A stretch of DNA of 64,000 nucleotides from Candidatus Omnitrophota bacterium (GTDB lineage Bacteria > Omnitrophota > Gorgyraeia > 1-14-0-20-64-10). Under the pieces are notes generated by a model that was given only the letters and a program-made list of their open reading frames with translations, did no database searches and was not told the origin of the DNA. Numbering within the stretch: the first letter of the stretch is position 1; every line of letters starts with the position of its first letter. The DNA lies in the NCBI GenBank assembly GCA_016177405.1, contig JACOVG010000012.1, forward strand, positions 5,385-69,384, read 5' to 3'. The translations under genes and the position numbers were made by a program. Positions 1 to 38,900 of this stretch are shown piece by piece.

Positions 1-18
1 GAGCGGGTCGAGAGGGTC

Positions 19-11451: not shown

Positions 11452-12184
<733 letters not shown>

Positions 12185-20704: not shown

Positions 20705-21328
20705 ATGAAGAATAAGTTTTGGGTGTTGGTTTTTCTTGTCCTTTTCGGCTGGGCGGCCTTGAGTTTCGCCCAGGAGACCGTCTGGCTGGACGACGCCGTG
20801 GCCCCCGGTGGTGCCACCGAAGGCAGCTGGCTCTGGGAGGATTCCGCCGAGGCCAGCGGCGGCAAGGCCCACGCGCATCCCTCGGCCAAGGGCCAGCAGT
20901 CTCACGGCATCGGCTTGGCGCCCGCCCTCCTGCCGGCCAACGGCATGATCAGCCAGACGGTCTGGCTGGACCCCCAGGACCCGCCCCGGGGGATCATGCT
21001 CAAGGTGAAAACCGAGACCGGCGAGGAAGCCGGCGTCTACTGGGAAGGGGAAGAGGAGGTCTTTGTCCCGGCCGACGAGGAGGAGGTTTTCTACTACGGC
21101 CTTCTGCCCGAGCTGGGCAAGTGGGTCACACTGGAGGTGCTGGCCGAGGATTTGGGGCTGGAGGACGAAAAGATCGCCCAGATCACCTTTGTGACCTTTG
21201 ACGGCCGGGTTTTGTGGGACAAAACGGTCCTCACCGAGGCGCCACCGGCCGAGGAGGTCGAGTTCTTCCCGGATCTTTCCCCGCCGGTTCCGCAGGAAGA
21301 GGCCCCGCTCCCGGGGAATATTGAATAG
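20705..21328 (+). CDS. Secreted hypothetical protein (signal peptide, acidic, Pro-rich C-terminus)
   Basis: Signal peptide MKNKFWVLVFLVLFGWAALSFA-QE, RBS GAGGTG upstream. No recognisable domain. Confidence 0.55.
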   Translation: MKNKFWVLVFLVLFGWAALSFAQETVWLDDAVAPGGATEGSWLWEDSAEASGGKAHAHPSAKGQQSHGIGLAPALLPANGMISQTVWLDPQDPPRGIMLKVKTETGEEAGVYWEGEEEVFVPADEEEVFYYGLLPELGKWVTLEVLAEDLGLEDEKIAQITFVTFDGRVLWDKTVLTEAPPAEEVEFFPDLSPPVPQEEAPLPGNIE

Positions 21329-21433: not shown

Positions 21434-21469
21434 ACACCCTGGGTCCGTCCCATAGCGGGCCCAGGGTGT
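21434..21469 (+). promoter_or_regulatory. Strong hairpin (14-bp stem with one G-U, 8-nt loop) in the AT-richer leader 50 nt upstream of the giant gene 1 start
   Basis: ACACCCTGGGTCCG-tcccatag-CGGGCCCAGGGTGT. No U-tract follows. Confidence 0.5.
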
Positions 21470-21517
21470 CCGTCTATATGGAATAGATGAGGGTTTAAAG
21501 AAGCTTTTATCTCCCCG

Positions 21518-24500
21518 ATGAAGCCAAACCTGAATCAGGAAGAAAGTCGGTGTCAGACACCGAAACCGGTGTCTGACACCGTTGTTCCTCGCCTCTTCCT
21601 TAATAAGCGACCCCTCGCCCTCCTGCTCGTCCTCACCTCCCTCACCACCTGGGCTTGCCCCGCTTTTGCCCTGCGCCCGGCCGCCCCCAAGGAATCCGGC
21701 CTCGAGGAAGAGCTCTCCCGGACCCTCACTTCAGCCCCCGCTCGCCCTGAACTTGTCGCAGGGCCCGCCTCCGGCCTGGAGGAATGGAGTGACCGTTTTC
21801 ATTTCATAATCTTTCCAGAGGGAGATCGAGACGACCGGGCAATCGCTACTGGGTTTGGTCCTGCCGATCATACCCTCTGGATCCGAATCATCCAGAGTGA
21901 CGGTTTCACCTCTCGTCTTGGGTTCCAAGTAAAGGACCCTTCAGAAAGAGCCTTCCCCGGAGAAGTTCTGGTTTTACCTGGCAGGACCATAGGGAATTTG
22001 CTCCGGAAGACGGTGCCACAAAGAGATCTTTGGCGCGCTTGGGATATAGGAGTAGATAAGCTCACCCCTTACAAGCGCCGGAGTGAACTCGCGGCTTTCC
22101 TGGCGCGTTATCCGGAATTTTGGAAGGCGGTCCAAAAACAAAAGGCGTTAGCCATCGCGGGAGGCCGCGACGAGCAGGCCCTAAGTTTCCAAAGTGGCGA
22201 TTACGCCGTCCTTTTCTATACCCCCGGGGAGGATCCGGCCCAGTGGAAAATCTTTGCAGATCTTTCGGCCAATCCGCATCGCGATGATCAGCCAGTCACC
22301 TTAACATTCTCCGTTTCGCCTCGCCACGAGTTCAATCGAAAAAGTGTTTACCTGAAGCGGCGGGGTCTCCCGTCATCTTCTGCCCAACCTTTCTCGCAAC
22401 GGCAGACTCTTACCCATCAGCGCGCCCCTAACCCCCCCTCCGGCCTGGAGGAGCTGGGGGCGAGATTGGCCGAGATTCCATTGTCGGCCGGACTGACAAA
22501 ACTTTTTCAAGGCCTGGGCCAGACCCAGCCCGACATGGTGGATCGGTTTCTGACCATCCAGGAATCGGCAAAGAAGCAATGGCTGGCGATTCTTGAGAAG
22601 CATCCCGGCGAGCTGAAGATGGCCGTGGTTATTCCCGCCTACTCGAGGGGTGTGGACCGGATTCGATCGCAGGACTCGCTGACGCTGAAGCTTCTGCAGC
22701 TTAAGAAGCTGGCCGAAGCGGATACCCGGGGCCGTGTCCGATTCGTGATCTACGTGGTGGATGACAAGCCGGAGGCAGGACTTCAGGCGGAGGTGGATCG
22801 GGCCCGGCAAGCGGCAGGGGTGACTCCAGAAGGGCCTGTTCAGGTCCGATACCTCCGATTGCAGGACGCCGTGGACAAGCGGCGTCCGGATCTCAAGGAT
22901 CTATGGTTCGACCTCGTGCCGGGGGAGCAGGGCTCCAGAAGAAGCATCAAGTGGGGCGCGGTGAGATACGGCATGAGTGTCGCGGTGGAAGAAGGAGCCC
23001 GGGTGGTCGGCATGACCGACGCCGATTCCAACCAGCAAGCCTCCGAGCTTCCCAACCTCTTCGCGCCCATTCTCTTGGAGGATCGCGCGGCGGCCGTCGG
23101 ATCCCGCTTCTTAAATGGATCTGCTTCAAACAACGATCAGATCGGCCCCCACAACTTCATTGAATATTTCCTCTATAACCCCCTGGTCAAGCTCGCCATG
23201 CCGGAGATCGCTCCCATCGAAGATCTCCAGTCGGGACTCAAGGCCTTTTCGGCGAAGTTCCTGAAGGCCGCTCTGCCCAAGATGGCTACCCACAAGTTTG
23301 CCGGAGATTCGGAACTGCTGTTTTTGATGGCTCAAGCGGGCGGCCGCATCGCCGAGGTTCCCCGGTCCGAAATCGAGGAAAGCCCCGGCCAAAGCGCGGT
23401 AAATCCCGCCAGCTACATGAGCTTTGTTGAGCAACTAAAACTGCAACTGGTCCTGCACGCCGGCGGAAGAGGATTCCCGCCCGCCGCTTCAAGGTTTGGC
23501 CGGGCGATTCAAGGTCTCAACGTTGGTTTTTGGACGGCGCAGCGCCGCCGTTTCGAGCAGGCGCTGAATGAGGTGCAGGCGGGAAGGAAAACGCATGCCG
23601 AGGTAGAAGGGTTGTTACACGACCTCCTTTTCCCCGCCACGGGCCTGGAGGAGGGGGAGGAGTTCACCGGCGAGGCCCATCCGGGCGATATCATCTGGAA
23701 TCCGAACGACCCGCAGGGGATCCGGTACGTGGTGGATCGCCTGGAGGGCGGCAGGGTCGTCGCCCACCCGGAGAAGGAGCCGAAAGCCGTCGTCCGATTT
23801 CACCCGGATGCGCTGAAGCGCGATTTCAAACGCGCCTCTCCTCCCCTCAAGACGCTGAAAGAGCGGGCCGCTCAAGTCCCAGCCGAGGTTCAGGAGCTTT
23901 CCATCCGCGGGGGGCGCCGGCTGGAAAAACAACGGGCGGCCTTTTATCGAATTCAGGATCTGATTGGGCAGGACCCAGAGGTCTTGAGGCGGCTGAAGTC
24001 TGTTCGGGTGGGGGCCAAGGTGGTTTTATACGGCGCTACCTCCGAGGAGCTTTCTCACTTCCAGGGATTGGGCCTTGAGCCCGCCGATTACGATTTTGTT
24101 TTGCTGGAGCCGGTCTCGAACCCGGGAATGGCCGGCGATTTGGTGAAGAAGGCTTGGATGAAGGCCTCGGTGGTCTTCGCGGGGATTTCGGTGATGGACT
24201 TCATCACCCTGGTCCAGCCGCCGGGCGTTGCCGGCAGCAAGGAGAGACTTCCGTTTCCCGATTGGGCCGACCCGGCAAAACCGCTCACCGTGGTGGATCA
24301 ATTTCCTGAAGGAGCCGCCGCATACCTGGCCAAGGCGGAGCGGGTGATCTCCGGAGGGCCTTCTCACAGCGGGGCCAGAGTTGCCTGGCAGACGCTGGGA
24401 GGCGGGGTCCAGGGGCTGGGTAAGCGGGGAGATGTCCGGGTTTCTCATGTCTCCCGCGTGGGCGAAGGGACAGAAGGAGAGAAGCTCCTGGTTTCTCTGC

Positions 24501-27500
24501 GGGATTTAAGAGAGTCGGGGGAAGGGGTGGAGGTCTCCGGAATGAAGCCGGCCAAAGGAAGGGTGAATGCCTCCACGCTGGTTCTCTCCCAGCCCGAGGG
24601 AAAGCGCAATTTCATCCACCAGCTGGGGGCCAGCAACGAGCTTACCCCAGCCGATGTCCCGGACTCGGCTTTCCAGGGCGAGATCTTCTCCCTTCACGGG
24701 TCGGAGCTCGCCCAGAGGTTCATGAAGGGCGGGAAAGGGGTGATCGCGCTCCTGGAAAGAGCCAAGGCAGCCGGAGCCATCACGACCTGGGACACCGTCG
24801 TGGATCCCTTTCAACATTGGGGTTCGGGGAATCTCTCCGACAGAGATTTCGAAAAACTCCTTTCCCTCATCGACGTCTTCACCCCGTCGTTTGGGGAGGC
24901 GCTTGACATCATCCGCTTGCGGGAGGGGCTTTCCGATGCCCAGGTAAAGAAGTGGGCCCCCAGCCAGGCGGCGCGCTATTTTCTGGACCGCGGTTCCGAG
25001 GCCCTCTTCCTGAAGCTGGACGAGAAGGGGTCGCTCATCTGGACCACCCAGCGTTCCATCTTTGGCAGGCCGGCCCATTTCAGGATGCCGGTTCTCTGGG
25101 GCTTGAAGAAGAGGGACGGCACCGGAACCGGCGACGCCTACTCCGCCGCGGTCATCGTCGGCATCCTCATGGACTGGCCGGTGGAAAAGATTGCCCGGGT
25201 GGCCACCGCCGCCGGCGGGCTCGTTCTGGAAAATTACGGCGGGACCCTGGGGGATTACACCTTCCCCGACGTCCTCAAAGCGGCCGAGCGTCTTGAGGGC
25301 CAGATCGACGTGAAGATGGCTCTGGATTACCCGACTCTCTCCCTTTGGGAGGTGAGGCCTGGCGGGACCTCCGCGGGCTTTCCAGAGGGGCTCCTTCCGG
25401 AGGCCAAACCGGAATTGGATACCCTGCTTCTTCTGGCGGTGAGGCCTGATGAGGCGATCGCGGTGGCCGAAGGCCAGCCGGACGACCATCTTGCTAGAGG
25501 TCCTGTCGACAGGTTAAGGGTGCGCCTGAATGGGCGAACCGGCCCTCTTTCGCCGTCTGAAGAAGCGCTGGCCGAAGCCGTCCAGCGAGAGCCCCGCTTG
25601 GGTTCCACCCGCTCCACCCAGGAGCAGAGCGATCTTTTGACCTACATCGCAAGCGCTCTCCTCATTCCCCCCGCCATCGATGACCCCTCCGCTGCCGGCT
25701 TGGAGGAAAAGAATCGCAAGCCGGAGGCTGCCTCGGCGGTCTGGGACGGTTTGACCGTTGACCAGGCAGCGGAAATGCTTTTTGCTTACCGCCTGCGGAA
25801 GTCTTTGTACGCTGGTCGGAAGATCTTCCCCGTGGCCGGCAGTAAATCTTTTTTGGACACGATGTTCAACGGAGAGATCCGCAGCTGGCTGCAGACGGTA
25901 GCGAATGGTCATCCAAACGAATCGCTGAAACTTGTCGATGATGGCACGACCGTTTACGCCAGCTCTTCCGCCACGGGCCTGGAGGAGGGGGGCCAGGAGA
26001 AGGTTCAGAACGAGGTTCAGGAGGCCCTCTTGAGATTCCAGGGGCTCTTGTCCCACGCGACCAGCAAGGATTTGCACGTTTTGAGCCCCCAGACGCTCAA
26101 ACGGCTCCCGGATCTCCAAGGCTTAGGCGGCTTTGGTTTATTCCTGTTGCCTGACTCGAAGTTGCCGTTAGATCAGCTTCCGGGAGCAATAAAGAGGCGG
26201 TTGGGCAGAAGGCCCAAGGCCAATTTCTACGGCGCCGGAGCGGAAACCACTATCCTGGGGCTTGCCGCCCCGGGAGCGGGCGGTAGGTCTGGCTGGCTCA
26301 ATCTGGTTGTTGCAGGCAATGGGACGCTCGAGGAGTTCCTAGCAGGAACCCTGCTTCCCGGCTTGGGCATTCCCGACAAGCACTGGAAGGGCGAGGATGA
26401 TCTCGCGCAGATTGCGCTCGACCTGTGGACGCTGGCTCCTGCGCGAGCTGCCGGGCTGGAGGAAAAGCCCCAAACGGAGGACCAAGAGGACGAGTGGGGC
26501 GGGGTGGTTCGGCTGAATCTCTATGCCGAGCCGGATAGGGACGACCGGATTGTTATTTATAATCTCGGAGGCAGCCGCGCCGTCTGGGTCAAGTGGCTGA
26601 AAACAGAAAATCCCTCCAGGATCAGCGTAGGTTTCCTCGCGGCCGATGCCGGAGGAAGGCATTTGCCGGGCGATGTCGTCGTGCTAAGCGGGGAAACCGT
26701 CCAGCGCGCCCTGGATGAAGCCCAGAGCCCTCAATGGATCTGGCCGGCTTCCAATCGAATCCCGGATCTTCGCGACCCGGGAATCCGCGTCGCCATTCGG
26801 AAGGCAATGGAAAAGCGCCTGTCCGAAGCGAAGGCAAGTTTCCTCCAAGTCCCTCCTGCTCCTCAAGAGATGGAATTCAGGGATGGAGGCTACGCCGTTG
26901 TCTTTGACACCGCCGGAGATGACCCCTCAAGCTGGCGCCCCGTGGCCGACCTTTCCGTTCTTCCGAAAAACCAGAGGAAAATAGAGCTCGTTTTATCGGC
27001 TTTAGGTGAGGTGAACCTCGACAGAAAGAGCCAGAGCCAATTTCACCAGGAAAACGACCAACCCGCCGTTGATCCCTGGGGCTCGGTTTCCTCGCCTCTC
27101 GTGAGCGGCGACGCCTGGAGGAGGAAAGTCCAAAGCCAGCTCGATGATTACGTGACCGTGGTGCAAGCCCCGCCTCAAGGGCACGAGGAAAGGGATCCGG
27201 ATTTTCCCTCCAAAGAATTGCTCGAGGGCGTTCATTCTATAGAGGGAAGCTTGAAGGATGGAAAGGGGCCGGCGGTTGCCGAGGTCATCCGAAAAGTCCG
27301 CGGGAACTTAAGGGCGCTGGAAAGAGGAGGCCGGATTTCTCCTGTGGATTTCGAAGCCCTGGATGATCTTCTGGAGACAGCCGTGATCGAAGCCGAGCGT
27401 CCCCGCCGCCTTCCCGCCGGCCCTTCGGCTGTCCCCCCTCGGCCCCTCGATGAGAAAGAGGCCCCCCCAAGTGAATTCGCGGAGGGCATCCCCCTCGGCC

Positions 27501-30500
27501 CCGCGGCCGAGCCCCCCTCCGGCCTGGAGGAGACGGTCCAGGAGAAGTTCGGCAAGGCGCCGTTTGCCGTGGGAGTGCGTCTGCACGGTAGCACCATTGC
27601 CGCCGCTTTGGTCAATCGGAAGGGGGAGGTAGAGACCACCATCCTTGAGCCGACGCAGTGGAGAAAGCTGCCGGAGATCCTTGAGCTTTTGGGAAATCCG
27701 CCCCCCGACCGAGTGAATAAAGCGATCCTGGAACTGATTCCTCGCCCCGACCATATCCTCTCCTCGGAACAGCGTGACTTGGCCAGCCGGATTGGCGACC
27801 GGATTACCGAAGAAGTCATCCAGCACATCTTGGCCCTCGTCCGCAGTTCAGGACTGCCGAGGGAGAAGTTCAAATACACCTTCATCTCGTTCGCTGGACC
27901 TGTGGATCCCGTTTCAGGCCGGGCCGGAGTGCCTTTTGCCGCGCCCAACATACCCGGTTTTGAGAACTATCCCCTGGCCGAGAAGGTGGCCCATGGGATC
28001 GAGAAGGAGCTGGGGATGAAGGTTCGCGTGGATGTGAGAAATGACGCCCCCTCCGGCAGGATGGGGGAGACCAGCCCCAGCGGGACCATACCCGGCGCCA
28101 AGGGGGTGATCTCCATGATCTGGGGCACCGGGATCAACGCCGACTCGGATACCGTGCCCCTGTTTGAGGTGGGCCACGCCATCGTGGGTCGAATCGAAGA
28201 AGACGGCTTGGCCCACTACGAGTTTCGTGGAGCGGCAGAGAATCGGCCAGCCCTGGAACCGGATGAGTTTGAGGTGGAACAGCAATTAGGCGGCGAGGTT
28301 CTGGCGGCAGTCTTTAGGCAATACGGTTTCAAAGATGGCGGTGATCTCACACAGCAGGCTGCTCCGGACAATTCTGACCAAGCCAAGCGAGATTCGGCCA
28401 GGTCTATCATCGAGGACGTCGGCAAGGACATGGGCAGAGCCATCGCTTCCCTTCTGGCGCACTGCCGCAAGGAGCACCAGTTTGTTCCAACCCGTTTTGT
28501 TCTTACCGCCGGCGTGGCGGAGAAATTCGGCAAGGGGTTGGTGGATTCGAAGGGCAGAGACCTTCTGACCGGCGCCGTCCAGGATGGAGCTTCCCAAGAG
28601 CTTGTGGGTCGTTTCAATGTTTCTAAAGCGGATGCCGAAACGATGGTCAAGGCCGTTATCCGCTCCAGCATGGATGACCGCCGGGAGTTTGCCGCGGCAG
28701 CCAGCGCTCTTCCCTTCGCCGCGGCGGGATTTCCTGCCGATGGATTGTCGGTTCTCCCTGTATCGGAAACATCCCTGGAATTCTTGAAGAAGCTTAATCC
28801 TGATACCCCGGCCGAATTTGTTCAACACCAGCTTCTGATGGATGGCCCTCAAAGAGTGGCCGCGGTTCTGGAAAAAGGCAAGGAGACGCAGGCCGTGGGG
28901 ATGCTTGTGGCAGGCAGACTGTTCTGGGGGACCTGGGAAGATTTTAAGAAAGCGGGACTCACGGATGAGCAATCAGCCTCTGCCTTCCTTGACTATCTCC
29001 GGAATGGGATCCATGAGGCGCAGGTTACAGGTTTTAGGAATCTTTTCATCGAGAGGGTGATTCTTCGAAGAAGCCCCAAAAACGGCAGCGTCCATTTACA
29101 GCTTTCTGACGGACCGGTCCAGCCAGACGATGAAGTCACCTCGATGGTTCTCCTTCACGACAAAAAACATAATCTGGAAAACTTGGCCCACAGCCGTTCC
29201 AAGACCCCACTGCCGACCGGAAAAGCCGCCAAACCGCCCAAGTCCGGGCTGGAGGAGAAGCCGCCGGTGGAAAAGCGGGTCACCGGTAAAACAAAGTTGG
29301 CGGCGGGTGACCTGCTTGTTCGCAGGCAGCTAGGTGAGCCCATCCGCGGCTATCAGATCACGAAGATCGGCTGGCCGCAGTGGTGGCGTGGAATAACGGT
29401 GAAGCAAACAAGCATAGAAGCAACGCCGCCTCCTCTGCCTCGCGTGACGCGAAGAATCCTGAAGAGCGATCCAACGTGGACCCATCTTCCGCTGGCTGGC
29501 CTTCGGGAGGAGGATCTTGTTCGGCTTGGCTTGGAGACCTTCTTGAGCAAAATCACCCCAGGGGAGAAAGCGGCTTGGAAGAAAGAAGGCCGCGAAGCGG
29601 CGGCCAAGCAGAAGCAACATAAAGAAGAAATCCGCGCCGCGCTGGGCCCGTACGCCGCGCCGCTTCCCACGCGAACCAAGCCGAAGCCACCCTTCCAGGT
29701 GACGCAAGGGGCGCGGGAGTTCGAGATTCTCAAGACGCAGGTTGAGAAGGAAGGGCATCTTGTAGCGGTGGAGCCAACCTCCTACTATCCCGCTGCCGAC
29801 GGGGGGATTTCCAGTGAGAATGTCGGGAGCATGGTGACCAGCCTTCTTCGCAAGGCGCGCATGGGGGAGAGCGAACTTAAACACATCGCCTTCTTTCTCC
29901 CGGGCACTCCGAAGGAAGAGCGGACTCCAAGGAATGTTTTTGTGGTTTCGCTGGATCAGCCCATCTTTCAAGGGAAAGACGCGCCGCAGACCCTGAAAAC
30001 GGCGCTTGATGCTGTCCTGAAATATCTGCTTTCCCAGGATTCCAAGGAAACACCTACGGAAAGAGTCCAGGTCCCCTTGGCGAGATGGAAGCCGCCGGGC
30101 GCCTCTGCCCAAGACCCCCATGAGCTGGTTCCGGTGATCCTGCCCGTTCCTCCGCGCCCCGATCCCACCGCAGGCCCGCCACAGAACCGGCGGGCAGGCC
30201 TGGAGGAGGCGGCGGGGGCGTTCCTGGCGGGGGTTGTGGAGCAGACGCGGGCCGAGCAGGACCCTTACGCCCCGCTTCTGGGCACCGATGAGGCCCGGGA
30301 GGCCGCGGCGCGGTATCTCACCAGTCAGTGGACCGCTCCGGAGAGGCGGATCGACCCTTCCCAGCTCTTTATAACTCCTGGCGGCGCCGGCGCCCTGGAG
30401 CTTTTAATCCGAATGGCGGCCGATGTGACCGACGCCCCCCTCAAGGCGCTTCGAGATCCGAATGGGCGCCAATGGATTTGGCTGTCGAAAGCGCTTGAAG

Positions 30501-32872
30501 AACGCTACGGAAAACCGGCCCGGAAATACCTTCAAACCAAGGCCTTCGAAGATTCAACTCTTGGGAGCTTCATGATAAGTCTTTATCTCGCGAACCCACA
30601 GCGCGGAACCCCCAAGATCATCTTGCTTAAGATCTCTGATTTTCCGCGGGCCGACGATAAGGAGTGGCTCGATTTTTTGAAGTACGCTTCCGCCAATCAA
30701 ATCCTGGTTGTCTTCGAAGATTCTGAAGGTCCTACCCCAACGATGGGGAAGCTGATGCGGTGGGTCCAGGAGAACCCTCTTTATAAGCGGACAACCCTCT
30801 TTATGACCGATTTCGGGAAGCGTCTTGATCTGGACGACTACCCGTTGGGGGCGCTGGTTGGCTTTAACAACGCGCTCGTTACCCCTTACCAGACCGCGGC
30901 CGGCGGCTCGATCGCGGCCCCCTCCCAGGCGGTCCAGAAAGGGATCTCCCGCTGGCTTGCCCTCAAGGTCTCTCCCGGGGCAGGGGATGGCTGGCCGCAG
31001 GCTGCCCTTTCCTTACCGGATGTGCCGCAGAACAAAGGGTTCCTGGCGCCTCCTTATCTCGAGGGGAAACCGGACCCGACCCTTGCCTTGAGCTCCAGGG
31101 CCCTCTGGAAGGAGCGAGGCCTGCCGAGATTTCTGCCCGGCGTGAGCGATGAAAACGTTCTCTCAAGGGCGATTCCCCTGCACGTGGGGGCCCCCTCGGT
31201 GCCGCGGCCTAAATGGGCCAGGCAGGCGGTAGAGGAGGCCCTGAAGAGCAACCGCTGGAAGAGCTGGGAAGAGCTGGAGCAAGCGGTCGTTGAGGCAATG
31301 ATCGGCTATATTCGGCGCACGTATGGCGTCGAATATCTTGTGGATGATGTGGCGACAGGCCTCTCCGGCTCCAAGACCGCCCTGCAGGAGTTCCTCCTCG
31401 CGCTGGAGCATGTTGAGAAGAAGCCGGTTTCGGCGGCTCTCCCCAATCCTCACTACGTGGGATACGGTTCCTCACTCCGGGCGGTCATCCCGGATAAGCA
31501 GATCCATCGGTTTGGAACCCAGCGCGAGAACGACTTTGTCCCAACGATTGACGATATCCAGGCAGCGCTGGATGAGATGAAACAGAGCTCTCCGGAGGCG
31601 ACGAGGGTCCTTATCCTCACCAGCCCCGGCAACCCCACCGGCACCGTGATTTCGCAGGAGCTCCTGGAAAAATTGGACGCCTTGCTTCAGGAGAAGGGGT
31701 ATGAGGACGTTCACGTGGTTCTGGATGTCGCCTACGGACAGCTCCTCTTTGAGGGTAAGCAGCTTCAGCTGAACAACCTGTCCGACAGCGTCCTTACGCG
31801 GGTGGCTCTCCTGATGACCCAATCGAAGGAGATCCTTCAGCCCGGGGGCCGGCTGGGCACGTTGGCCATCGCCAATCCGGCGATTGTCGGCCGGATGCTG
31901 GACCAGCGGGTGTTAAAGGCCGACCGGGCCGCGATGGTAGCGCAGGCGGTTGTCTACGGCCAGGAACATGTTGAGGAATTTAACGCCTTTATCAGCAAGC
32001 ATGTGGAGCACCTGAAGCGAAACGCTAAACTGCTGACCCATATCCTCCGAAAGCACGGCGTGGATTTTATCCCGCCCCAAGGGGCCTTTTATCTTCTATT
32101 CAAGAAGGAGCGCTTCCTTGAGCTCGACGCGGAATTCACCCCCTGGGACCTGGGGCTCACCTATGTGGACGGCAACGCCTTCTATGCCCCGGAAGACGAA
32201 TGGTGGCGCATCGCTTTCTCCGGCCCCACCGAGCAGGTAGAGAAGGCGGCCCGCCGCCTGGATGAGTGGCTTACGGCGCATTCTCTCGCCGCCACGGGCC
32301 TGGAGGAGGGGGCCGCGGCGGCGGCTGCCCCCACGGTGCCGGAGGCGCTGGCGAGTCTCAATGGGCTTGAGAAGTTTTGGCAACTGCCGGATATTCCAGC
32401 GGCAGAGGGCTTCCCGGAACTTTCCGCCCGGCCCATCCTCATCGATACCCACGCCGATCCACGGCTGGGCCAACTCGCCCAGGCGTTGAGCATCATGATG
32501 GCCAAGGACCCTTCGGCCCCCGAGGTGGACTTTCTCCTGGTAGCCCGCTGGGAGGAAGTCTCCCCATTGCTGGAGGGGTTGAGTCAAATTAACCGCGAGG
32601 CCGCCGAGGAGTTCCTCAAGCCCCGGATCATCGCCTACGGCGGTTCGGAGGGGAGCCGAGAGAATGCTCGACGCGAGGCCATCGTCCGGTTGGCCAGGCG
32701 GTTCGGGCTCGGCGACGATCCGGAGAAATTGATACGGTCTGGGTCCCTTAAGGTGATCGGCGTCCTTACGCCAGATCTGGCGCTTGAGCTAAAGGATTTC
32801 CTTGGAGAGGTTGGATTACACTTTACGCAGGACGCCTACGATCGTTTGAAGGCGCTTCTGGAAGCGGCATAA
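21518..32872 (+). CDS. Giant multidomain protein 1 (3784 aa). N-terminal signal-peptide-like segment, then GT2 glycosyltransferase, pfkB-family sugar kinase, ROK-family sugar kinase and class I/II PLP aminotransferase domains, plus long uncharacterised regions. Carries 11 [SAT]GLEE motifs.
   Basis: GT2: VIPAYSRG...VGMTDADSNQ (DXD). pfkB: GGKGVIALLERAKAAGA...DGTGTGDAYSAAV. ROK: FISFAGPVDPVSGRAGVPFAAPNIPGFENYPL...VRVDVRNDAPSGRMGE. Aminotransferase: TSPGNPTGTV...LLMTQSKEILQPGGRLG. Uninterrupted ORF. Confidence 0.75.
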   Translation: MKPNLNQEESRCQTPKPVSDTVVPRLFLNKRPLALLLVLTSLTTWACPAFALRPAAPKESGLEEELSRTLTSAPARPELVAGPASGLEEWSDRFHFIIFPEGDRDDRAIATGFGPADHTLWIRIIQSDGFTSRLGFQVKDPSERAFPGEVLVLPGRTIGNLLRKTVPQRDLWRAWDIGVDKLTPYKRRSELAAFLARYPEFWKAVQKQKALAIAGGRDEQALSFQSGDYAVLFYTPGEDPAQWKIFADLSANPHRDDQPVTLTFSVSPRHEFNRKSVYLKRRGLPSSSAQPFSQRQTLTHQRAPNPPSGLEELGARLAEIPLSAGLTKLFQGLGQTQPDMVDRFLTIQESAKKQWLAILEKHPGELKMAVVIPAYSRGVDRIRSQDSLTLKLLQLKKLAEADTRGRVRFVIYVVDDKPEAGLQAEVDRARQAAGVTPEGPVQVRYLRLQDAVDKRRPDLKDLWFDLVPGEQGSRRSIKWGAVRYGMSVAVEEGARVVGMTDADSNQQASELPNLFAPILLEDRAAAVGSRFLNGSASNNDQIGPHNFIEYFLYNPLVKLAMPEIAPIEDLQSGLKAFSAKFLKAALPKMATHKFAGDSELLFLMAQAGGRIAEVPRSEIEESPGQSAVNPASYMSFVEQLKLQLVLHAGGRGFPPAASRFGRAIQGLNVGFWTAQRRRFEQALNEVQAGRKTHAEVEGLLHDLLFPATGLEEGEEFTGEAHPGDIIWNPNDPQGIRYVVDRLEGGRVVAHPEKEPKAVVRFHPDALKRDFKRASPPLKTLKERAAQVPAEVQELSIRGGRRLEKQRAAFYRIQDLIGQDPEVLRRLKSVRVGAKVVLYGATSEELSHFQGLGLEPADYDFVLLEPVSNPGMAGDLVKKAWMKASVVFAGISVMDFITLVQPPGVAGSKERLPFPDWADPAKPLTVVDQFPEGAAAYLAKAERVISGGPSHSGARVAWQTLGGGVQGLGKRGDVRVSHVSRVGEGTEGEKLLVSLRDLRESGEGVEVSGMKPAKGRVNASTLVLSQPEGKRNFIHQLGASNELTPADVPDSAFQGEIFSLHGSELAQRFMKGGKGVIALLERAKAAGAITTWDTVVDPFQHWGSGNLSDRDFEKLLSLIDVFTPSFGEALDIIRLREGLSDAQVKKWAPSQAARYFLDRGSEALFLKLDEKGSLIWTTQRSIFGRPAHFRMPVLWGLKKRDGTGTGDAYSAAVIVGILMDWPVEKIARVATAAGGLVLENYGGTLGDYTFPDVLKAAERLEGQIDVKMALDYPTLSLWEVRPGGTSAGFPEGLLPEAKPELDTLLLLAVRPDEAIAVAEGQPDDHLARGPVDRLRVRLNGRTGPLSPSEEALAEAVQREPRLGSTRSTQEQSDLLTYIASALLIPPAIDDPSAAGLEEKNRKPEAASAVWDGLTVDQAAEMLFAYRLRKSLYAGRKIFPVAGSKSFLDTMFNGEIRSWLQTVANGHPNESLKLVDDGTTVYASSSATGLEEGGQEKVQNEVQEALLRFQGLLSHATSKDLHVLSPQTLKRLPDLQGLGGFGLFLLPDSKLPLDQLPGAIKRRLGRRPKANFYGAGAETTILGLAAPGAGGRSGWLNLVVAGNGTLEEFLAGTLLPGLGIPDKHWKGEDDLAQIALDLWTLAPARAAGLEEKPQTEDQEDEWGGVVRLNLYAEPDRDDRIVIYNLGGSRAVWVKWLKTENPSRISVGFLAADAGGRHLPGDVVVLSGETVQRALDEAQSPQWIWPASNRIPDLRDPGIRVAIRKAMEKRLSEAKASFLQVPPAPQEMEFRDGGYAVVFDTAGDDPSSWRPVADLSVLPKNQRKIELVLSALGEVNLDRKSQSQFHQENDQPAVDPWGSVSSPLVSGDAWRRKVQSQLDDYVTVVQAPPQGHEERDPDFPSKELLEGVHSIEGSLKDGKGPAVAEVIRKVRGNLRALERGGRISPVDFEALDDLLETAVIEAERPRRLPAGPSAVPPRPLDEKEAPPSEFAEGIPLGPAAEPPSGLEETVQEKFGKAPFAVGVRLHGSTIAAALVNRKGEVETTILEPTQWRKLPEILELLGNPPPDRVNKAILELIPRPDHILSSEQRDLASRIGDRITEEVIQHILALVRSSGLPREKFKYTFISFAGPVDPVSGRAGVPFAAPNIPGFENYPLAEKVAHGIEKELGMKVRVDVRNDAPSGRMGETSPSGTIPGAKGVISMIWGTGINADSDTVPLFEVGHAIVGRIEEDGLAHYEFRGAAENRPALEPDEFEVEQQLGGEVLAAVFRQYGFKDGGDLTQQAAPDNSDQAKRDSARSIIEDVGKDMGRAIASLLAHCRKEHQFVPTRFVLTAGVAEKFGKGLVDSKGRDLLTGAVQDGASQELVGRFNVSKADAETMVKAVIRSSMDDRREFAAAASALPFAAAGFPADGLSVLPVSETSLEFLKKLNPDTPAEFVQHQLLMDGPQRVAAVLEKGKETQAVGMLVAGRLFWGTWEDFKKAGLTDEQSASAFLDYLRNGIHEAQVTGFRNLFIERVILRRSPKNGSVHLQLSDGPVQPDDEVTSMVLLHDKKHNLENLAHSRSKTPLPTGKAAKPPKSGLEEKPPVEKRVTGKTKLAAGDLLVRRQLGEPIRGYQITKIGWPQWWRGITVKQTSIEATPPPLPRVTRRILKSDPTWTHLPLAGLREEDLVRLGLETFLSKITPGEKAAWKKEGREAAAKQKQHKEEIRAALGPYAAPLPTRTKPKPPFQVTQGAREFEILKTQVEKEGHLVAVEPTSYYPAADGGISSENVGSMVTSLLRKARMGESELKHIAFFLPGTPKEERTPRNVFVVSLDQPIFQGKDAPQTLKTALDAVLKYLLSQDSKETPTERVQVPLARWKPPGASAQDPHELVPVILPVPPRPDPTAGPPQNRRAGLEEAAGAFLAGVVEQTRAEQDPYAPLLGTDEAREAAARYLTSQWTAPERRIDPSQLFITPGGAGALELLIRMAADVTDAPLKALRDPNGRQWIWLSKALEERYGKPARKYLQTKAFEDSTLGSFMISLYLANPQRGTPKIILLKISDFPRADDKEWLDFLKYASANQILVVFEDSEGPTPTMGKLMRWVQENPLYKRTTLFMTDFGKRLDLDDYPLGALVGFNNALVTPYQTAAGGSIAAPSQAVQKGISRWLALKVSPGAGDGWPQAALSLPDVPQNKGFLAPPYLEGKPDPTLALSSRALWKERGLPRFLPGVSDENVLSRAIPLHVGAPSVPRPKWARQAVEEALKSNRWKSWEELEQAVVEAMIGYIRRTYGVEYLVDDVATGLSGSKTALQEFLLALEHVEKKPVSAALPNPHYVGYGSSLRAVIPDKQIHRFGTQRENDFVPTIDDIQAALDEMKQSSPEATRVLILTSPGNPTGTVISQELLEKLDALLQEKGYEDVHVVLDVAYGQLLFEGKQLQLNNLSDSVLTRVALLMTQSKEILQPGGRLGTLAIANPAIVGRMLDQRVLKADRAAMVAQAVVYGQEHVEEFNAFISKHVEHLKRNAKLLTHILRKHGVDFIPPQGAFYLLFKKERFLELDAEFTPWDLGLTYVDGNAFYAPEDEWWRIAFSGPTEQVEKAARRLDEWLTAHSLAATGLEEGAAAAAAPTVPEALASLNGLEKFWQLPDIPAAEGFPELSARPILIDTHADPRLGQLAQALSIMMAKDPSAPEVDFLLVARWEEVSPLLEGLSQINREAAEEFLKPRIIAYGGSEGSRENARREAIVRLARRFGLGDDPEKLIRSGSLKVIGVLTPDLALELKDFLGEVGLHFTQDAYDRLKALLEAA
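21548..21581. promoter_or_regulatory. Perfect 15-bp inverted repeat CGGTGTCAGACACCG-aaac-CGGTGTCTGACACCG, 30 nt inside the giant gene 1 ORF. Each arm is itself a near-palindrome.
   Basis: Read directly from the sequence. No in-frame alternative start lies downstream before the hydrophobic segment, so it sits in coding or 5'-proximal sequence. Confidence 0.6.
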
Positions 32873-32907: not shown

Positions 32908-35900
32908 ATGCGTTCGAAACTGCTGAAAATTCTCGTGGCGCGGGTTGCGCTCTTCACGTCCGTTATCACCTGGGCGGCGCCCGGGTATGCCCTGCGCCAG
33001 ACCGGGCTGGAGGAGTCTCCCAAGGAGCGGAAGCGGCTTGAAGTCGCCCTCCTGGGCACCGGCAACCCCGGCCAGGACCTCAAGAACCTCGGCGCCGCCG
33101 CCAACCGCCTCGCCACGGACCTTGGGTTTCTCCCTGCAGCCGGATTAGAGGAAGGTTCTTTAGGTCTCGATGATCTGATAAAGCAAGCCGGCGCTGGCTC
33201 CGAGGATGAGCGGAGCAGGGCCATCCAGGCCCTGGGAAGATTCTTTTCAGGGATTACGGTGGATCGGAAAAGATTGGCCTCGTTTGATGGCGGTCGCAGG
33301 GTCCTCCCGGATCTCACCCCGGTGACAAGCATTGGAGCGCTGGGAGTGGTGTTGAGCAACATGGTGGGTTCCGGTGACAAGATTGGATGCGACAGCGCTT
33401 CCTCCTCCAGGATGAATCCGGCGGTGCAGGTGGTATTCCGTGTGGCGGGGCACAACTGGTGGAACAGGGCAGGTGAAGGGAAGAGGGAAGGTGTTCCCGA
33501 CGAGGCGCAGATTCCGCCGATGGAGAAGCCGCTCGTCTTCTCCGCCGGCTGGGTCACTCTCTATACCGCCAACGACCCTGTGGATGGAACCACCCGGACC
33601 TCCAAGGGTCAGGATGGGGGGGTGACCCTTTTTATGGTGACCCCGGATTTTGGCAGGAGGATCCCGGACGAGCTGCGGCTTGAGAACGTCATCTACGCGG
33701 GTCAAAAAGCCGACTTCAGCCTGAAGCGCCAAAAGTTTGACGAGATCGTGAGGCGGATCGCGGCGTCGAATAGAAAATCACCTTCCGATTACGAGGTCTG
33801 GGTGCTCAACCGTCCCCATGGCCAGGAGATCATTGATCTGGCAAGGAAAGCGGGAGCCAAGGTGCGCCTGTATCAGGATGGGACGGTTCAGCCCTCCCTC
33901 TACCTGGCCGCTTTTCCGGAGAGAAACATCATCGTGGCGGGCCGCGTCGGAGCAACCGAAGGCAAGATGGTCGCGGCCCCCCTGCGCAACGTCCATTACC
34001 CCGGCGGCGGAAGGGTTTGGATGAAGGCCCGGATCATCTCGGAAAACTCCGCGTATGAGGTGGCGGAGAAGCGCCAAGGCGGCATCGTTTATTACGAGCC
34101 GAGGCTTGACCCGGACGGCAAGAAGGTCGCCGCGAAGAGTCTGACCAACGGAAACAAGTTGAGTCTCAAGGACAAAGAAGCTCTCAAAGAGGCCGGCTAC
34201 GCGGAGGAAGAGGTTGCCCGGATTGAGGATGGAAATTGGGAGCTGGAACTGGAGGATTTGGCTCCGGCGGCGGGAGACCTGTCCCTTTCCTACATCACCG
34301 AGCCGATGACCGGCTTGGATGGCCAGCCCCTCTTTGATTGGGAAGCGGAAATACACGGTGTTCAGAAGGCCGAAGGGGTGGTCAGTCATACGTTGGATTT
34401 CGCCGCGGATGGCATCTGGCTGGTCACGCATCGCTATCCGGACGCGGGGCTGGGGAGGATTGCCGCTCAACTTCATGAGCAGGAGCGGGTGGTTAACCTC
34501 CTGCGGAAGATCGTATTCGAAGATCCAAGCCATAATCTCCGGCAGGCCGCCCAAGCGGCCTTGAGAGAGTATCTGCCGCACGCGCTTGGTCTGGACTTCC
34601 AGCGGCGGGCGGGGCTGGCGATCGCGGGTGTGGCGGCGGGGCTGGAGGAGGCCAAGCCGGTCATCGGCTACCAGCCGAAACTGACACTGGAGCAAAACCT
34701 CAAGGCCCAGGCCCTTTTTGGGATGGGAACCGGTTCAGGCGTTACCAAGGTAGATGTGAAATACCAGATTAGAAACACGGCAGGAGATCCGGCCGCCTTC
34801 AGCCGGCTCTTTGGCGAACTCCTGGCCTTAAGCCAGGGCGACATGAATAAGCTTGCAAGGATTTTTGAAGAGGCGGTTCAGGCCGACTACGTGAGCGAGG
34901 AGCAGCTCGCCGCCGCCCTGCAGCGCCTGGCCGCCGATCCCGGGGTCCCCTACAACCAGCCGCCGGTTTCTTACTACAACCCGGCCCGCTACGTCTACGC
35001 CCGCCTGCGGAACATGCGGGGCGGCCGGATGACCGGATGGGTCGACGCGGTCCTGGAACCGGTGGCGGTTCGTGTTCGCAGACACGCCTCCGGCAAGGAT
35101 CTCTCCGATGTCCGGCAGAAGGCCCAGGTGGTTCAGGCCCTGCAAAAAAGCTGGGGGAGCGGTCGTCAAGAAGCGGGGTCGAACCTGCCCACAGGGCCTT
35201 TCCGGTACGAGATCTTTTGGGATTCCTTGGTGGAAAAGGACGGGGAATATTACCTCACGCTGGAACTGCTTCTGGACGGAGGGAAGGATTACGCCCAAGG
35301 GGTCGTTCTGGAGCTTCAGGTGGTAATTCCGGCAGAAGGGGAACTCCAGCAGTACCAGAACCCCTACACCTTGGAAATTCCCCCGGACAGAAGGGCCCCC
35401 TTCTCCTACGGACTCTTGGATTCCCTCCACTTTGTCAACACCCGCTTTCCGGAGTGGAGGCCCACGGCCCAACGGGACATCTACGATGCCCGGATGAAGG
35501 CGATGCAGGAAACAGGCGTGAAGCGCCAGATCCTGCGGCCGTCGGTTCGCCAGGGGAACAACCCCAGGTTCTTCGAGCCCTTCTTCCGGGCCTATTTGGC
35601 CGGGCGGGTTCCCTTGATCTACCACATCGTGCACACCCGCTCGGAGCGGGAGTACGGCAACCAGGGCGGGGTTCCCTCCATCGGGAATCTGGCCTCCGCC
35701 ATTGTCCGGCGAGGCGGTTTGGGAGTCACCGCTTCCTGGCTTATCGAAAATCCTAAAGAGGCCGAGCCGCTGGTCGGGCAAGAGCTGGTTTTTAGCTACG
35801 AGCTGGACCACCACCGGATTGACAATGTGAAGGATGCGGCTGGATTCGCGGCAGATTTTGAGTATCTGGTGAAGGCCTACCAGGAGGCGCTCGTCACAGG

Positions 35901-38900
35901 GTGGGTTTCCGCCAACCTGCAGGATGAGACCAAGCTGGAGAACGTTGAGAACCGCCAGAGCTGGCTTAGGTCCGGCGTCAACGCGGCCCAGACGAACGGC
36001 ATGGTTGACGCAACCATTTTTCAGCGGCTGGAGGAAGTCTACAGCGACGCTCCGGTGGCACCCGGCCTGCCCAGCTCCCTTGGCTTTCATTGGGTGCGCA
36101 ACCGGATCCTCCGCCACCTGGTCGAGACGGTTGGGGTCCCGGCAGGCGGGGTTCCGTATGACCGCTGGTACATCGAGCCGGACTATGCCCTGGACGGCAA
36201 GCCGCACACGGTGGAGGAGATGGCCTATCTTTCCTTCATGTCCTGGATGAGCGCCCAGGCGCACGGCTTTCCCTTGGGGCCGGTTGTCCCCAGCTACGGG
36301 AATGTCCACGGCGCCTCGGCGGGCAATCCGTCTCTTGCCCTGGCCGGTGTCCACCAGTACGCGGCCCAGGCGGCGACCCTTTACGGGCAGCCCTTGCCGC
36401 CAGAGCTTCTGGCGATATCCCGGAAGACCCCCCGCGGCTATTCCGACCTGGTCACTTCGGTTGTCGTGAATTTCAAGGATCAAGCGTTGGCGCAGGAGAT
36501 CGTGAAACTCTTTCCTGCCGACGGCCAGCGGACGGCCGCGGAAGAAGAGAGGATGAGGAATTTCGCGCTGGAGCAGTTAAGAAACATTCCAGCCGGCGTG
36601 CTCGGCACGCTGAAACAGGCGGAGCTGGCCATCCTCGAAGAGGTAGGGTTGGCCAAGAAAGAAGCGCGAGATCCCAGGCCGCTTGAGGAGTCGAGCCCAG
36701 AGGTGGCCAGGCGCCTGAAGGAGATTACCACCCAGATGGACGGGAAGATCCAGGCGATGGATCTTAGGCGGCGGGCGGCCATCACCACCCACGCGGCCAG
36801 CGGCCTAAGCGCCGCGCAGTTGAAGGCGGCGCGCGAGGCCGGCATCTGGATTGCCAACAAATCCACCGAGCCTCAAAACATCGTCCTGCGAGTTTTGTCC
36901 CTCTTTGACAAGATCTCCAGCGATGAAGTCGCCGGTTTGGACGCGCTGGCTAAACTCCCTGGAGCTGTCGAGATTTGGAAGGCCCATACCCACGGGATGC
37001 CGGCCCACCAGCGCGAGGAGCTGGCGGGCCGTATGGCCGCGCTGTACCAACAGATGTACGACGGGGTGGTGGAGCGGGCGGTCAAAGCGGCCAAAACTCC
37101 CGAAGAAGCACGGAAAATCCAGCTGGTGACCAAAAGCTACGGCCGGGTCTTTCCCTGGTTCTGGGATCCGCAGGCCGGCTGGTCCATGAATGAGCCGGGC
37201 TTAAGTGACTGGACCAGCGAGTTCGATTGGCTGACCAGCACCCACGGGCGGTACATGTTCGCCCTTCGGAATCCGGATGGGACGCTTCGCTTCCCGAACG
37301 CCCTCACCTGGGGGCTCGATCCGCTGGTGGTGGAGATCTCCCAGCACCTGATTGAGCAGACGATACCCTTCTACCATCGGCCCGATGTCATGAACGCCGA
37401 GGGGGCCGCCCAGGAGTACCGCGATTTCATGGCCGCCAAAACCACCGCCGGTGCGCCGGCCGAAGCCGACCATTGGACCGACAAGCCCCAAGGGCCGAAA
37501 TTGGACGACGCCGGGCTGGAGGAGAGCAACATCGCGAAGGCGAAGGGGCTGGGGAGTATCTTCTGCTTCGACTTTCTTGAGAACATCTCCGATGGCTTGA
37601 TCGAGGCCGCGATCCAGGGGGGCGCCACGGAGTTCACCATGAACCCCTATTCGACAGGGAATTACATCCAGCACCTCCTGACCCTTGCCACCGACGCGGG
37701 CCGCCAAAAGGCCGAGGCCCTCCAGGGGATACAGACTACGGAGCAATGGACAGGGTTCAAGAAGGAGGTGACCGATCTGGTCAAGGCAAAGGATAAGATA
37801 GGGCTGGCGCTGAAGGCGGCGATAGAGCCCTCACCGGATGTGAAGCCGGAGACCGAGCTGGCTCTAGCCAAGGCAGTTGCCCAGGCGATGCTGGCCGAGG
37901 CCGGTGTCGTGAAAGGGATGATGGAGCAATTGTCCCGGGAAGGGAAAAGCGGCGAAGAGGCGTACTGGGTCATCACCAAGTATTTTGCCGGAAAGATTGC
38001 CAGGCGGCTCAAGCCGATCTTTGATGGCTCCCAAGAGAAAACCGGCTACGTCTCCATCGAGGTGGATCCGCGGATCGAGCGGGAGGATTTTGCCGAAAGC
38101 CGCATGGAACCGGGAGCGGCGCGAGATAGAACCACTCGGCATCTTTGGATGGCGGACCGGATGCAGACAGAAACCAGGGATCTGGCCGGGATTGCCTCCA
38201 ACATCCTGGTCAAGGTTCCTGACACCGAGGCAGGGATCGCCACTGTTGGCGTGGTGGATGCCAACTACAATGTGACCCTGGCTTTTGTCGACGATGACGG
38301 TCGGGATGCCATTGCCGCTTTCGAGAAGAGGGGCGATTTGGCCCACCGCCTGCGCGTATCGCCCTTCGCCAGCCGGAACGCCGTCTACTTTGAGGAGTTC
38401 TGGGGCGATCTGATGAAGGAAGCCGACGGCTCCCAGGTGATTGACGGCCACGCCTGCACCATCGCCAATCTTTTCGATGTCTTTGAGGCACTCGGCAGCT
38501 ACGCGGACGGCGCCATCTGGTCCAGTCTCGGCATGAAGGTGAAGGGGGACCCGGGCGAGCTGTACGCCAGGTACGTGGTCGGTGTCGGGATCTTGAACGC
38601 CCCGCCGGAGACGGCCCGCGATTTCAACCGGGCCTCCTTTGAAATCCGGCGCTGGCTGGGTGAGAAAAGTTTGGTGGAGATCCTGACCGATTATTTCCAA
38701 GCGGTGAAAGAGGGCAAGGTCCCCTCGGCGACAGCGAAGTTCCCGGCCTTGATGGACGGTTCGATCTCTCCAGAGGATCTGGCGCGGCAGGCCGTTGGCA
38801 AATGGCACGCCTTGAGGAGTCGGCCGGTGTACCAGGGCCGCTTGACTCAAGTTCTTGAGAGGGTTAAGCAGTTGGAGCTGGCGGCCCAAAAGCCGCGTCC

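Follow-up and report, generated by a model that had tools for sequence, protein, structure and literature searches.

The 64,000-nucleotide (nt) window analysed here, a stretch of contig JACOVG010000012.1 from a Candidatus Omnitrophota bacterium, contains three very long open reading frames (ORFs), g1, g2 and g3, and the end of a fourth, orf0, which is open at the window start. These giants are best read as belonging to a family of modular 'enzyme-string' proteins that is restricted to an Omnitrophota clade, exported and nearly free of cysteine, and in which a shared leader is followed by modules bounded by the short peptide [STA]-G-[LMAVQ]-E-E (GLEE in the window), here called the tag. A common export route for the three giants is well supported by the predicted features of their N-termini. 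Regarding the tag, it is tentatively proposed, as the most probable single reading, that a clade-specific export leader is combined in this family with a tag by which secreted enzyme strings are processed or recognised, cleavage at the tag being the more conditional part of this proposal.

Translation of the 5' ends of the giants gives exactly the N-termini quoted in a preliminary description of this DNA, which are ...TTWACPAFA/LRPAAPKESGLEE for g1 (21518), ...ITWAAPGYA/LRQTGLEE for g2 (32908) and ...LALACPAPAYS/LRESQ...ALTGLEE for g3 (46950), the slash marking the predicted cleavage site. That description had placed the first GLEE 10-30 residues behind the site; the proximity holds, but the measured distances of 9 (g1), 4 (g2) and 18 (g3) residues are somewhat shorter than that range. 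A composite pattern, consisting of an uncharged run of at least 12 residues, small-x-small, L[RK] and GxEE within 30 amino acids (aa), has exactly three matches in the six-frame translation of the window, all of them starts of giants. The small exported protein encoded at 20705, described earlier as having an ordinary signal peptide, indeed reads ...AALSFA/QETV, without L-R and without GLEE.

The leader pattern is present in all 29 complete N-termini of the family, which include the three from the window and 26 relatives from at least 10 other metagenomic sources; one further example, outside this set, is found in L013. Across the 29 leaders, the predicted signal peptide has a median length of 28 residues, with a net positive n-region (1-7 Lys/Arg ahead of the uncharged run) and an uncharged run of about 20 residues, of which about 8 belong to the c-region. 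Position -4 is Pro in 23 leaders, -3 is a small residue (A/S/G/V/T) in 27, -2 is mostly Phe or Tyr, and -1 is A/G/S/T in all of them. Behind the site, +1 is Leu in every case and never Pro, +2 is Arg (25) or Lys (4), and +3 is Pro or Gln in 21, with the first GxEE following after 4 (10 cases), 6, 9-11, 18 or 23 residues. The ALRQTGLEE block of g2 recurs verbatim in P0004, L010b, L011a and L011c, and A-L-R is kept in two relatives despite a 20-residue insertion ahead of it. Judged by sequence, the leaders are of the canonical Sec/signal peptidase I (SPI) type, with the unusual addition of an invariant L-[RK] at the predicted new N-terminus.

Other types of signal were considered and rejected. 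A lipoprotein leader (signal peptidase II) is not indicated, as there is no lipobox, the Cys of g1 (T-W-A-C-P) and g3 (A-L-A-C-P) lie 5-7 residues ahead of A-x-A, and g2 and most homologues have no Cys at all. For a twin-arginine translocation leader, an RR pair was seen by eye in about 8 of the 29 (e.g., VRRFF in g3) and is missing from g1, g2 and most relatives. A sortase, exosortase or rhombosortase signal was discarded for the lack of a C-terminal hydrophobic segment and because the motifs are internal and repeated, and a type IX secretion system (T9SS) sorting domain because no Por secretion tail was matched in Pfam or NCBIfam and the modelled C-terminal domain is alpha/beta.

Strong cysteine depletion is a known mark of proteins that fold outside the cytoplasm. 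Cys accounts for 0.01% of the residues in the family representatives (35,159 aa), 0.05% in the giants of L006, 0.17% in those of the window and 0 of 5,854 aa in those of L008, against 0.86-1.17% in the housekeeping proteins of the same loci. In g1 there are three Cys in all, two of them inside the predicted signal peptide (first 51 residues), and g3 is intermediate with 12 Cys, including a C-x-x-C at residues 925-928; additionally, Trp is about two-fold enriched in the giants. Real export of the giants is supported by this near-total loss of Cys relative to their cytoplasmic neighbours. The common export route put forward in the preliminary description is well supported as regards the export itself, on the grounds of a single leader family, Sec/SPI features, near-zero Cys and almost no other hydrophobic segments (four transmembrane-like windows outside the N-termini in 58,538 aa).

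The same evidence bears on whether the hydrophobic N-termini might be uncleaved membrane anchors and the enzyme strings cytoplasmic, membrane-tethered metabolons. The cargo is of cytosolic type, with some catalytic motifs intact (the aminotransferase Lys and the PfkB GxGD), and published surveys report many membrane-anchored Omnitrophota giants with metabolic domains facing the cytoplasm. However, the positive n-region predicts an N-in orientation that would leave the remainder of the protein outside, the hydrophobic core without the c-region spans only about 12-14 residues, a 19-residue Kyte-Doolittle mean above 1.8 is reached by just 8 N-termini, 27-29 of the 29 leaders have a canonical A-x-A site, and the loss of Cys is an extracytoplasmic signature. 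Anchoring is the least probable of the readings weighed here, and a highly improbable one.

GLEE is not an N-terminal feature belonging to the signal peptide: it is a module-boundary motif found throughout the proteins and near their C-termini, and the N-terminal copy is merely the first. There are 11 copies in g1, 5 in g2, 3 in g3 and 2 in orf0, giving 21 against 0.72 expected (Poisson P = 9e-24), with S, T or A as the preceding residue in 21 of 21 (P = 3e-15); no in-frame GLEE was found in the + strand ORFs of the window other than the four giants, hence none in the housekeeping genes. Across 36 proteins of the family (56,910 aa), GxEE occurs 185 times against 27 expected, and 166 of these fit [STA]-G-[LMAVQT]-E-E, while the control patterns AxEE, SxEE, PxEE, DxEE, KxEE and RxEE are at expectation. 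Chance or low complexity is ruled out by these counts and controls, and a DNA-only element (uptake sequence, Chi-like site or restriction site) was rejected because the copies are in frame, on one strand and in giants only. The surroundings of the tag are enriched in Pro (-3, -4, -8) and Ala (-2) upstream and in Lys (+1) and Pro (+2) downstream. The middle residue varies with lineage (GLEE, GMEE, GAEE/GVEE, GQEE) and is at times mixed within one protein. In the relatives L010, L011, P0004 and P0010, the internal tags are GMEE, yet the first tag behind the signal peptide is GLEE (GLES in P0010); since the first tag stays GLEE in these GMEE lineages, in several as ALRQTGLEE, the leader copy may be under a constraint of its own.

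Based on the distribution of its copies, the tag is a general module delimiter and not a part of the signal peptide. Pfam domains contain none of 60 tags, where 10.4 would be expected (P = 1e-5), and in several cases a domain is closely bracketed by tags, such as a WD40 domain at 206-523 with tags at 196 and 524. The three tag copies covered by the two AlphaFold models, of the g1 C-terminal domain and of a recurrent 215-aa module, have a predicted local distance difference test (pLDDT) below ~55, as low-confidence, linker-like stretches beside well-folded modules. The family architecture consists of the leader, n repeats of motif-module and an optional C-terminal domain of about 150-190 aa, with two tag copies 14-45 aa apart directly behind the leader and one copy 14-38 aa ahead of some C-termini. 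Because single-enzyme members (e.g., P0017 and L006c) have the same layout, as leader-motif-enzyme-motif-C-terminal domain, the tag code is independent of protein size.

The tag also has a codon layer, analysed at 67 sites of four high-GC genomes (the window giants, L005, L006 and L008). The codon consensus NCC-GGN-NNG-GAG-GAR creates an in-frame GGAGGA, a Shine-Dalgarno (SD)-like hexamer. The -1 codon has C in its third position at 87% of the sites. A terminal G is seen in 91% of the middle codons, compared with 56% for matched L/A/V-Glu contexts (P = 4e-9), and GAG encodes the first Glu at 96% of the sites, compared with 52% for Glu-Glu pairs elsewhere (P = 9e-12); the third positions of Gly and of the second Glu are free, and the flanks of the tag contain no nucleotide information. 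GGAGGA is thereby kept at synonymous positions in the four genomes, with P from 1e-6 to 1e-11. Plain optimal-codon choice is insufficient to account for this, since the GAEE lineage uses GCC for the -1 Ala (18 of 19) and GCG for the middle Ala (14 of 16). At the distant, lower-GC locus L012, the peptide tag is intact and GGAGGA is lost, with GAA for the first Glu in 7 of 15 and mixed Ala codons. As L012 keeps the tag while its codons have drifted, the peptide is the primary conserved entity, and a purely mRNA-level element was rejected. The constraint at the mRNA level is, by this comparison, limited to certain lineages. Internal initiation or frameshift-termination at the hexamer was also discarded, there being no conserved start codon or off-frame stop downstream.

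These codons raise the alternative that the tag is selected at least partly in the mRNA, where the in-frame SD-like GGAGGA would pause ribosomes and couple translation to Sec, with a first pause just past the signal peptide and later ones at the module boundaries of a very long protein whose modules fold fast. The synonymous constraint that keeps xxG-GAG-GAr at the 67 sites argues for pausing, and a pause for targeting would agree with where the first tag lies, directly after the signal peptide; however, L012 keeps the peptide and not the hexamer, and the invariant Gly and the preference for S/T/A are peptide-level features, Pro never being used although CCC would retain the nucleotides. Selection of this kind is considered rather improbable.

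Internal BLAST homology blocks between family members lie within 15 aa of a tag in 60% of cases at their start and in 53% at their end, against 9% at random. Since the blocks start and end at tags, the modules are the evolutionary units, with a tag on both sides, including the first and the last. The same observation would be expected if the tag were mainly an evolutionary junction, that is, a conserved in-frame 12-14 nt for the gain, loss and swap of cassettes between tandem giants, with little role in the protein; the conserved junctions in genes of polymorphic toxins would be a parallel. In agreement with this, module order is shuffled among paralogues and orthologues while the leader and the C-terminal domain stay fixed, the genes stand in tandem arrays, and conservation reaches the nucleotide level in the high-GC lineages. 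A junction of this sort is nevertheless very unlikely, as the identity is too short for RecA-dependent recombination, the flanks carry no nucleotide information, no recombinase was seen nearby, the codons of L012 have drifted under a conserved peptide, and the tags ahead of the first module and past the last one would be left unexplained.

In the favoured reading of a leader combined with a processing or recognition tag, the giant would be threaded through Sec and its leader cut off at A/L-R, after which a trans-acting reader, most simply an endoprotease, would recognise every tag, trim the short N-terminal stub and then separate or release the modules outside the cytoplasm. Assuming a cut at G/L, the internal site would read P-x-A-[AST]-G / L-E-E, compared with P-A-[FY]-A / L-R at the leader; one peptidase class could serve both, since both have small residues at -1 and -3, Pro upstream (-4 to -6 internally) and Leu at +1. 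The short conserved site at each module boundary, in linker-like stretches, is consistent with a secreted polyprotein. Cleavage at the tag, the nature of the reader and the final location of the products are what we infer beyond this anatomy. Several points weigh against such processing. The first tag lies so near the leader site (4-11 residues) that the stub would be trivially small, and docking or pausing fits its position at least as well. Furthermore, a pure protease-site model does not predict the synonymous-site constraint on GGAGGA in the four high-GC genomes, ATP-dependent kinases and a pyridoxal-phosphate enzyme have no obvious function outside the cytoplasm, and no protease gene was found within ~10 kb of eight arrays, the window having only the housekeeping RseP and ClpP.

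A more speculative and distinctly improbable version would make the tag dual-coded, with an SD-like mRNA pause metering the translation of modules to Sec and a peptide cut by a signal-peptidase-like enzyme (small-x-Gly / Leu). The giants would then be true secreted polyproteins, yielding a Cys-free kit made up of enzymes for sugar phosphates, kinases and binding modules, which might be delivered into prey or host cells or act on them.

The tag could also be an uncleaved short linear docking motif, the linker copies of which would bind a common partner that passes the string through the envelope or arrays it on the surface, and this is regarded as possible, though not likely. The partner could be, for example, a chaperone in the periplasm, an export channel of the outer membrane, a scaffold on the cell surface, the C-terminal domain or the 20705 protein. 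Docking would have the same anatomy as cleavage, namely low-confidence linkers flanking each module and a middle residue drifting with lineage. The pair of near copies behind the signal peptide and the copy ahead of some C-termini would suit avidity or a handle, and a conserved gene for an exported partner stands directly upstream of the arrays with a visible 5' side. However, the C-terminal domain and the recurrent module of the family (below) have no recognisable peptide-binding fold, and the strictness with which five residues are kept at more than 160 sites is rather what one expects of an enzyme site than of a docking motif. The upstream gene is of the 20705 type, which sits directly ahead of the first giant wherever a locus extends far enough to show that side, and is the sole array-specific conserved neighbour. 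Its product is 54-70% identical across five loci, far above the conservation of the giants, with a core of ~160 aa (...VWLDPQDPP.GI...GVYWEGE.EVF.P...YYG.LPELGKW...DGRVLW). Neither Pfam nor the PDB gave a sequence match for this candidate accessory factor.

The loci of the relatives (L005-L016) have the gene order of the window, which comprises H+-PPase, the small exported protein, the giant array, a peptidoglycan-binding protein, an OmpA-like lipoprotein and uppS-cdsA-dxr-rseP-ispG-proS. Four related genome records were found, two labelled as Omnitrophota metagenome-assembled genomes (MAGs) and two as uncultured Planctomycetia. P0001 matches g1 from residue 318 on and is the same protein, called from an internal Met, and g2 is identical to MBI1953079.1 of a Candidatus Omnitrophota MAG, where it is annotated as 'fructose-bisphosphatase class II'. 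The features of the window and of the homologous upstream genes are collected in Table 1.

Table 1. Coordinates of the giants, their leaders, tags and modules, and of the upstream gene (window positions unless a locus is named)
Feature	Position	Strand	Remarks
g1	21518..32872	+	3784-aa exported modular protein; leader, 11 motifs, C-terminal domain
g1 signal peptide	21518..21670	+	aa 1-51 (or from GTG 21569); positive n-region, uncharged run of 20, P-A-F-A at -4 to -1
g1 mature N-terminus L-R-P	21671..21679	+	family-conserved +1 Leu, +2 Arg/Lys
g1 motif 1 SGLEE	21695..21709	+	
g1 motif 2 SGLEE	21770..21784	+	opens recurrent W-G-P-G-P...FDT module
g1 motif 3 SGLEE	22439..22453	+	
g1 motif 4 TGLEE	23639..23653	+	
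g1 motif 5 AGLEE	25694..25708	+	
g1 motif 6 TGLEE	25973..25987	+	
g1 motif 7 AGLEE	26450..26464	+	
g1 motif 8 SGLEE	27518..27532	+	ahead of ROK-like module
g1 motif 9 SGLEE	29243..29257	+	
g1 motif 10 AGLEE	30194..30208	+	
g1 motif 11 TGLEE	32294..32308	+	13 aa past aminotransferase domain; opens C-terminal domain; AlphaFold pLDDT ~54
g1 recurrent W-G-P-G-P module	21770-22453 and ~26450-27160	+	aa 85-312 and ~1645-1880
g1 PfkB-type sugar kinase module	24428..25246	+	aa 971-1243; Pfam E = 2e-17; D-x-T-G-x-G-D kept
g1 class I/II aminotransferase module	31172..32260	+	aa 3219-3581; Pfam E = 3e-30
g1 C-terminal domain	32309..32869	+	family-defining; ends ...ALLEAA; AlphaFold pLDDT 89
g2	32908..39597	+	2229-aa exported modular protein
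g2 signal peptide	32908..32991	+	aa 1-28
g2 block L-R-Q-T-G-L-E-E	32992..33015	+	mature N-terminus and motif 1
g2 motif 1 TGLEE	33001..33015	+	within L-R-Q-T-G-L-E-E block
g2 motif 2 AGLEE	33139..33153	+	
g2 motif 3 AGLEE	34636..34650	+	
g2 motif 4 AGLEE	37510..37524	+	
g2 motif 5 SGLEE	39070..39084	+	opens C-terminal domain
g2 GlpX-type fructose-1,6-bisphosphatase-like module	33307..34026	+	aa 134-373; Pfam E = 5e-17; PDB sequence matches to class II fructose-1,6-bisphosphatases
g2 transaldolase-like module	37906..38613	+	aa 1667-1902; Pfam E = 4e-8; NCBIfam
g2 C-terminal domain	39085..39594	+	ends ...ALLKAA
g3	46950..56774	+	3274 aa; same leader, 3 motifs only, no C-terminal domain, no Pfam match
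g3 signal peptide	46950..47039	+	aa 1-30; RRFF in n-region
g3 mature N-terminus L-R-E	47040..47048	+	
g3 motif 1 TGLEE	47091..47105	+	
g3 motif 2 AGLEE	56079..56093	+	
g3 motif 3 AGLEE	56643..56657	+	38 aa short of C-terminus
orf0	1..3006	+	C-terminal >=1001 aa of fourth family member, cut by window start
Small exported protein	20705..21328	+	ordinary signal peptide
20705 homologues	L005 169-999; L006 1-330; L010 92-547; L011 1874-2641		

The window has 63% GC and all its genes on the + strand, with the giants breaking up a series of housekeeping operons (kdsA/B/D, lptC/A/B, tig-clpP, purA, H+-PPase, uppS-cdsA-dxr-rseP-ispG, proS and rimP-nusA-infB). The incomplete orf0 contains a domain like that of starch/glycogen synthase, carries motifs at 442-456 and 2947-2961, has zero Cys and ends in ...DLLQAA. 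Because ispG abuts proS in the syntenic loci L006, L008 and L012, g3 is an extra, lineage-specific insertion. Over 2990 aa it has no tag and no sequence match in Pfam or the PDB, and a GNAT-like stretch (R-G-R-G-V-G-T) was recognised by eye between the last two tags.

A strong hairpin lies within the annotated 5' end of g1 (21539-21590), with arms at 21539-21562 and 21567-21590, a 4-nt loop and a perfect 15-bp core formed by CGGTGTCAGACACCG and CGGTGTCTGACACCG. Its minimum free energy is -45.7 kcal/mol over 21500-21620 (z = -6.9), and it spans codons 8-25, ahead of the hydrophobic core. A second inverted repeat, of 14 nt, is intergenic and upstream of g1 (21434-21469). The hairpin or inverted repeat could possibly act as a terminator, attenuator or operator. 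An alternative g1 start, the in-frame GTG at 21569, alters only the length of the n-region and leaves the leader pattern unaffected.

The cargo was identified by Pfam, NCBIfam and PDB sequence matches, and the majority of modules have no Pfam match. The g1 aminotransferase module keeps NPTG, D..Y, the catalytic Ser-Lys and the C-terminal Arg. A recent duplication of the standalone PfkB gene (4035-5015) was rejected as the origin of the g1 PfkB module, the identity being only 25% over 93 aa. Modules of the relatives include cupin phosphoglucose isomerase, ROK, SHMT, HATPase, archaeal-type fructose-1,6-bisphosphatase (FBPase), HAD, 2-hydroxyacid dehydrogenase, WD40 and HEAT. Most of the ROK-like modules, as judged by eye only, lack the Asp of the DxGxT phosphate motif. 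In L012, a standalone 388-aa ROK-like gene without a signal peptide (10865-12031) follows directly behind the giant array, as an example of a module type occurring as a free gene. A recurrent module of ~215 aa begins at the tag (GLEE-W-G-P-G-P...) with the signature F-D-T-x-G-[DE]-D-P-x-x-W-x-P, and besides g1 is present in P0004, P0010, P0012 (twice), P0014, P0020 and P0022; its AlphaFold model has a pLDDT of 75, and Foldseek against the PDB gave no significant match.

Homology between g1 and g2 is confined to their last 175-190 residues, which are 36% identical and begin exactly at the last GLEE. An exhaustive HMMER search for this alpha/beta C-terminal domain (~150-190 aa) returned 27 cluster representatives, many of 1-3.5 thousand aa (kaa), always with the domain at the extreme C-terminus; no match to it was found in Pfam, in NCBIfam or, by Foldseek, in the PDB. 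The conserved, nonpolar end of the domain, ...[AV]LLEAA-COOH, resembles C-terminal degrons of the ssrA/Tsp type, and the similar end of orf0 occurs without the domain.

Giant multi-enzyme proteins of Omnitrophota have been described before (West-Roberts et al. 2023, bioRxiv 10.1101/2023.11.21.568195; 2026, bioRxiv 10.64898/2026.06.07.730766; Seymour et al. 2023, PMC10066038), with tiled sugar-metabolism, kinase, ROK, WD40 and HEAT domains and mostly with a signal peptide and/or transmembrane helices; in the same works, post-translational cleavage was proposed, with cleavage points unknown according to the authors. The window family resembles them in phylum, in long ORFs and in many unrelated enzyme Pfams on one exported polypeptide, and its PfkB, aminotransferase, GlpX, transaldolase, GT5, GPI, ROK, SHMT, HATPase, WD40 and HEAT domains match what defines a multi-enzyme giant. 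It differs in being smaller (0.6-3.8 kaa) and signal-peptide-only, and in forming one family by leader and C-terminal domain in a conserved syntenic array. Neither a leader consensus nor a linker motif nor an analysis of cysteine content is given in the published texts on Omnitrophota giants, and a full-text literature search for the tag strings gave nothing relevant.

Whether such giants act as a single chain or as cut pieces is an openly stated question for this group, which the tag makes testable, as it provides exact candidate processing or recognition sites and, additionally, rational module cuts for structure prediction. The leader consensus picks out one exported family, and the near-zero Cys is an independent compositional sign that cytosolic-type enzymes (kinases, FBPase, transaldolase, aminotransferase and SHMT) have been built for extracytoplasmic life. 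The conserved partner gene and the conserved C-terminal domain offer further handles on the export question.

Compared with known export signals, the leaders of the giants are like Sec/SPI signal peptides in the n-h-c layout, the small residues at -3 and -1, the helix-breaking Pro at -4 and the absence of Pro at +1, and unlike ordinary ones in the invariant +1 Leu, the +2 Arg/Lys, the [ST]-W-[SA]-A-P c-region and the obligatory acidic motif shortly downstream. In concept, the leader comes closest to the family-specific signal-peptide signatures of very large surface proteins. These include YSIRK-G/S of Gram-positive surface proteins, ESPR of autotransporters and TpsA proteins, and KxYKxGKxW of serine-rich adhesins, and they mark a dedicated branch or timing of secretion, not export as such. 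The giants share with them an extra conserved sequence on the signal peptide of large exported proteins; however, those signatures lie in the n- or h-region, whereas here it covers the c-region and the first mature residues, in a diderm Omnitrophota host and with enzyme-like cargo. T9SS cargo is similar in having an N-terminal Sec signal, variable cargo and a conserved extreme C-terminal domain, but in the giants this domain is alpha/beta instead of the beta-sandwich Por secretion tail, and g3 and others do not have it.

For the tag, the nearest parallels are cassette-boundary peptides, such as VENN in CdiA, PxxxxDPxGL in Rhs proteins, and G(L/V)E(A/P)S and AYDG around the cyanobactin cores, which are cut by the PatA and PatG subtilisin-like proteases; in those systems, the peptide is both a proteolysis site and a recombination boundary. 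The tag is likewise a short, strict peptide bounding variable cassettes, and G-L-E-x may resemble the PatA site. It differs in occurring in at most 11 copies per protein around folded enzyme modules of 100-950 aa, with neither a cognate protease nor toxin/immunity logic seen. The leader is a variant of ordinary Sec signals, and the tag appears closest in concept to cassette-junction and protease-recognition peptides.

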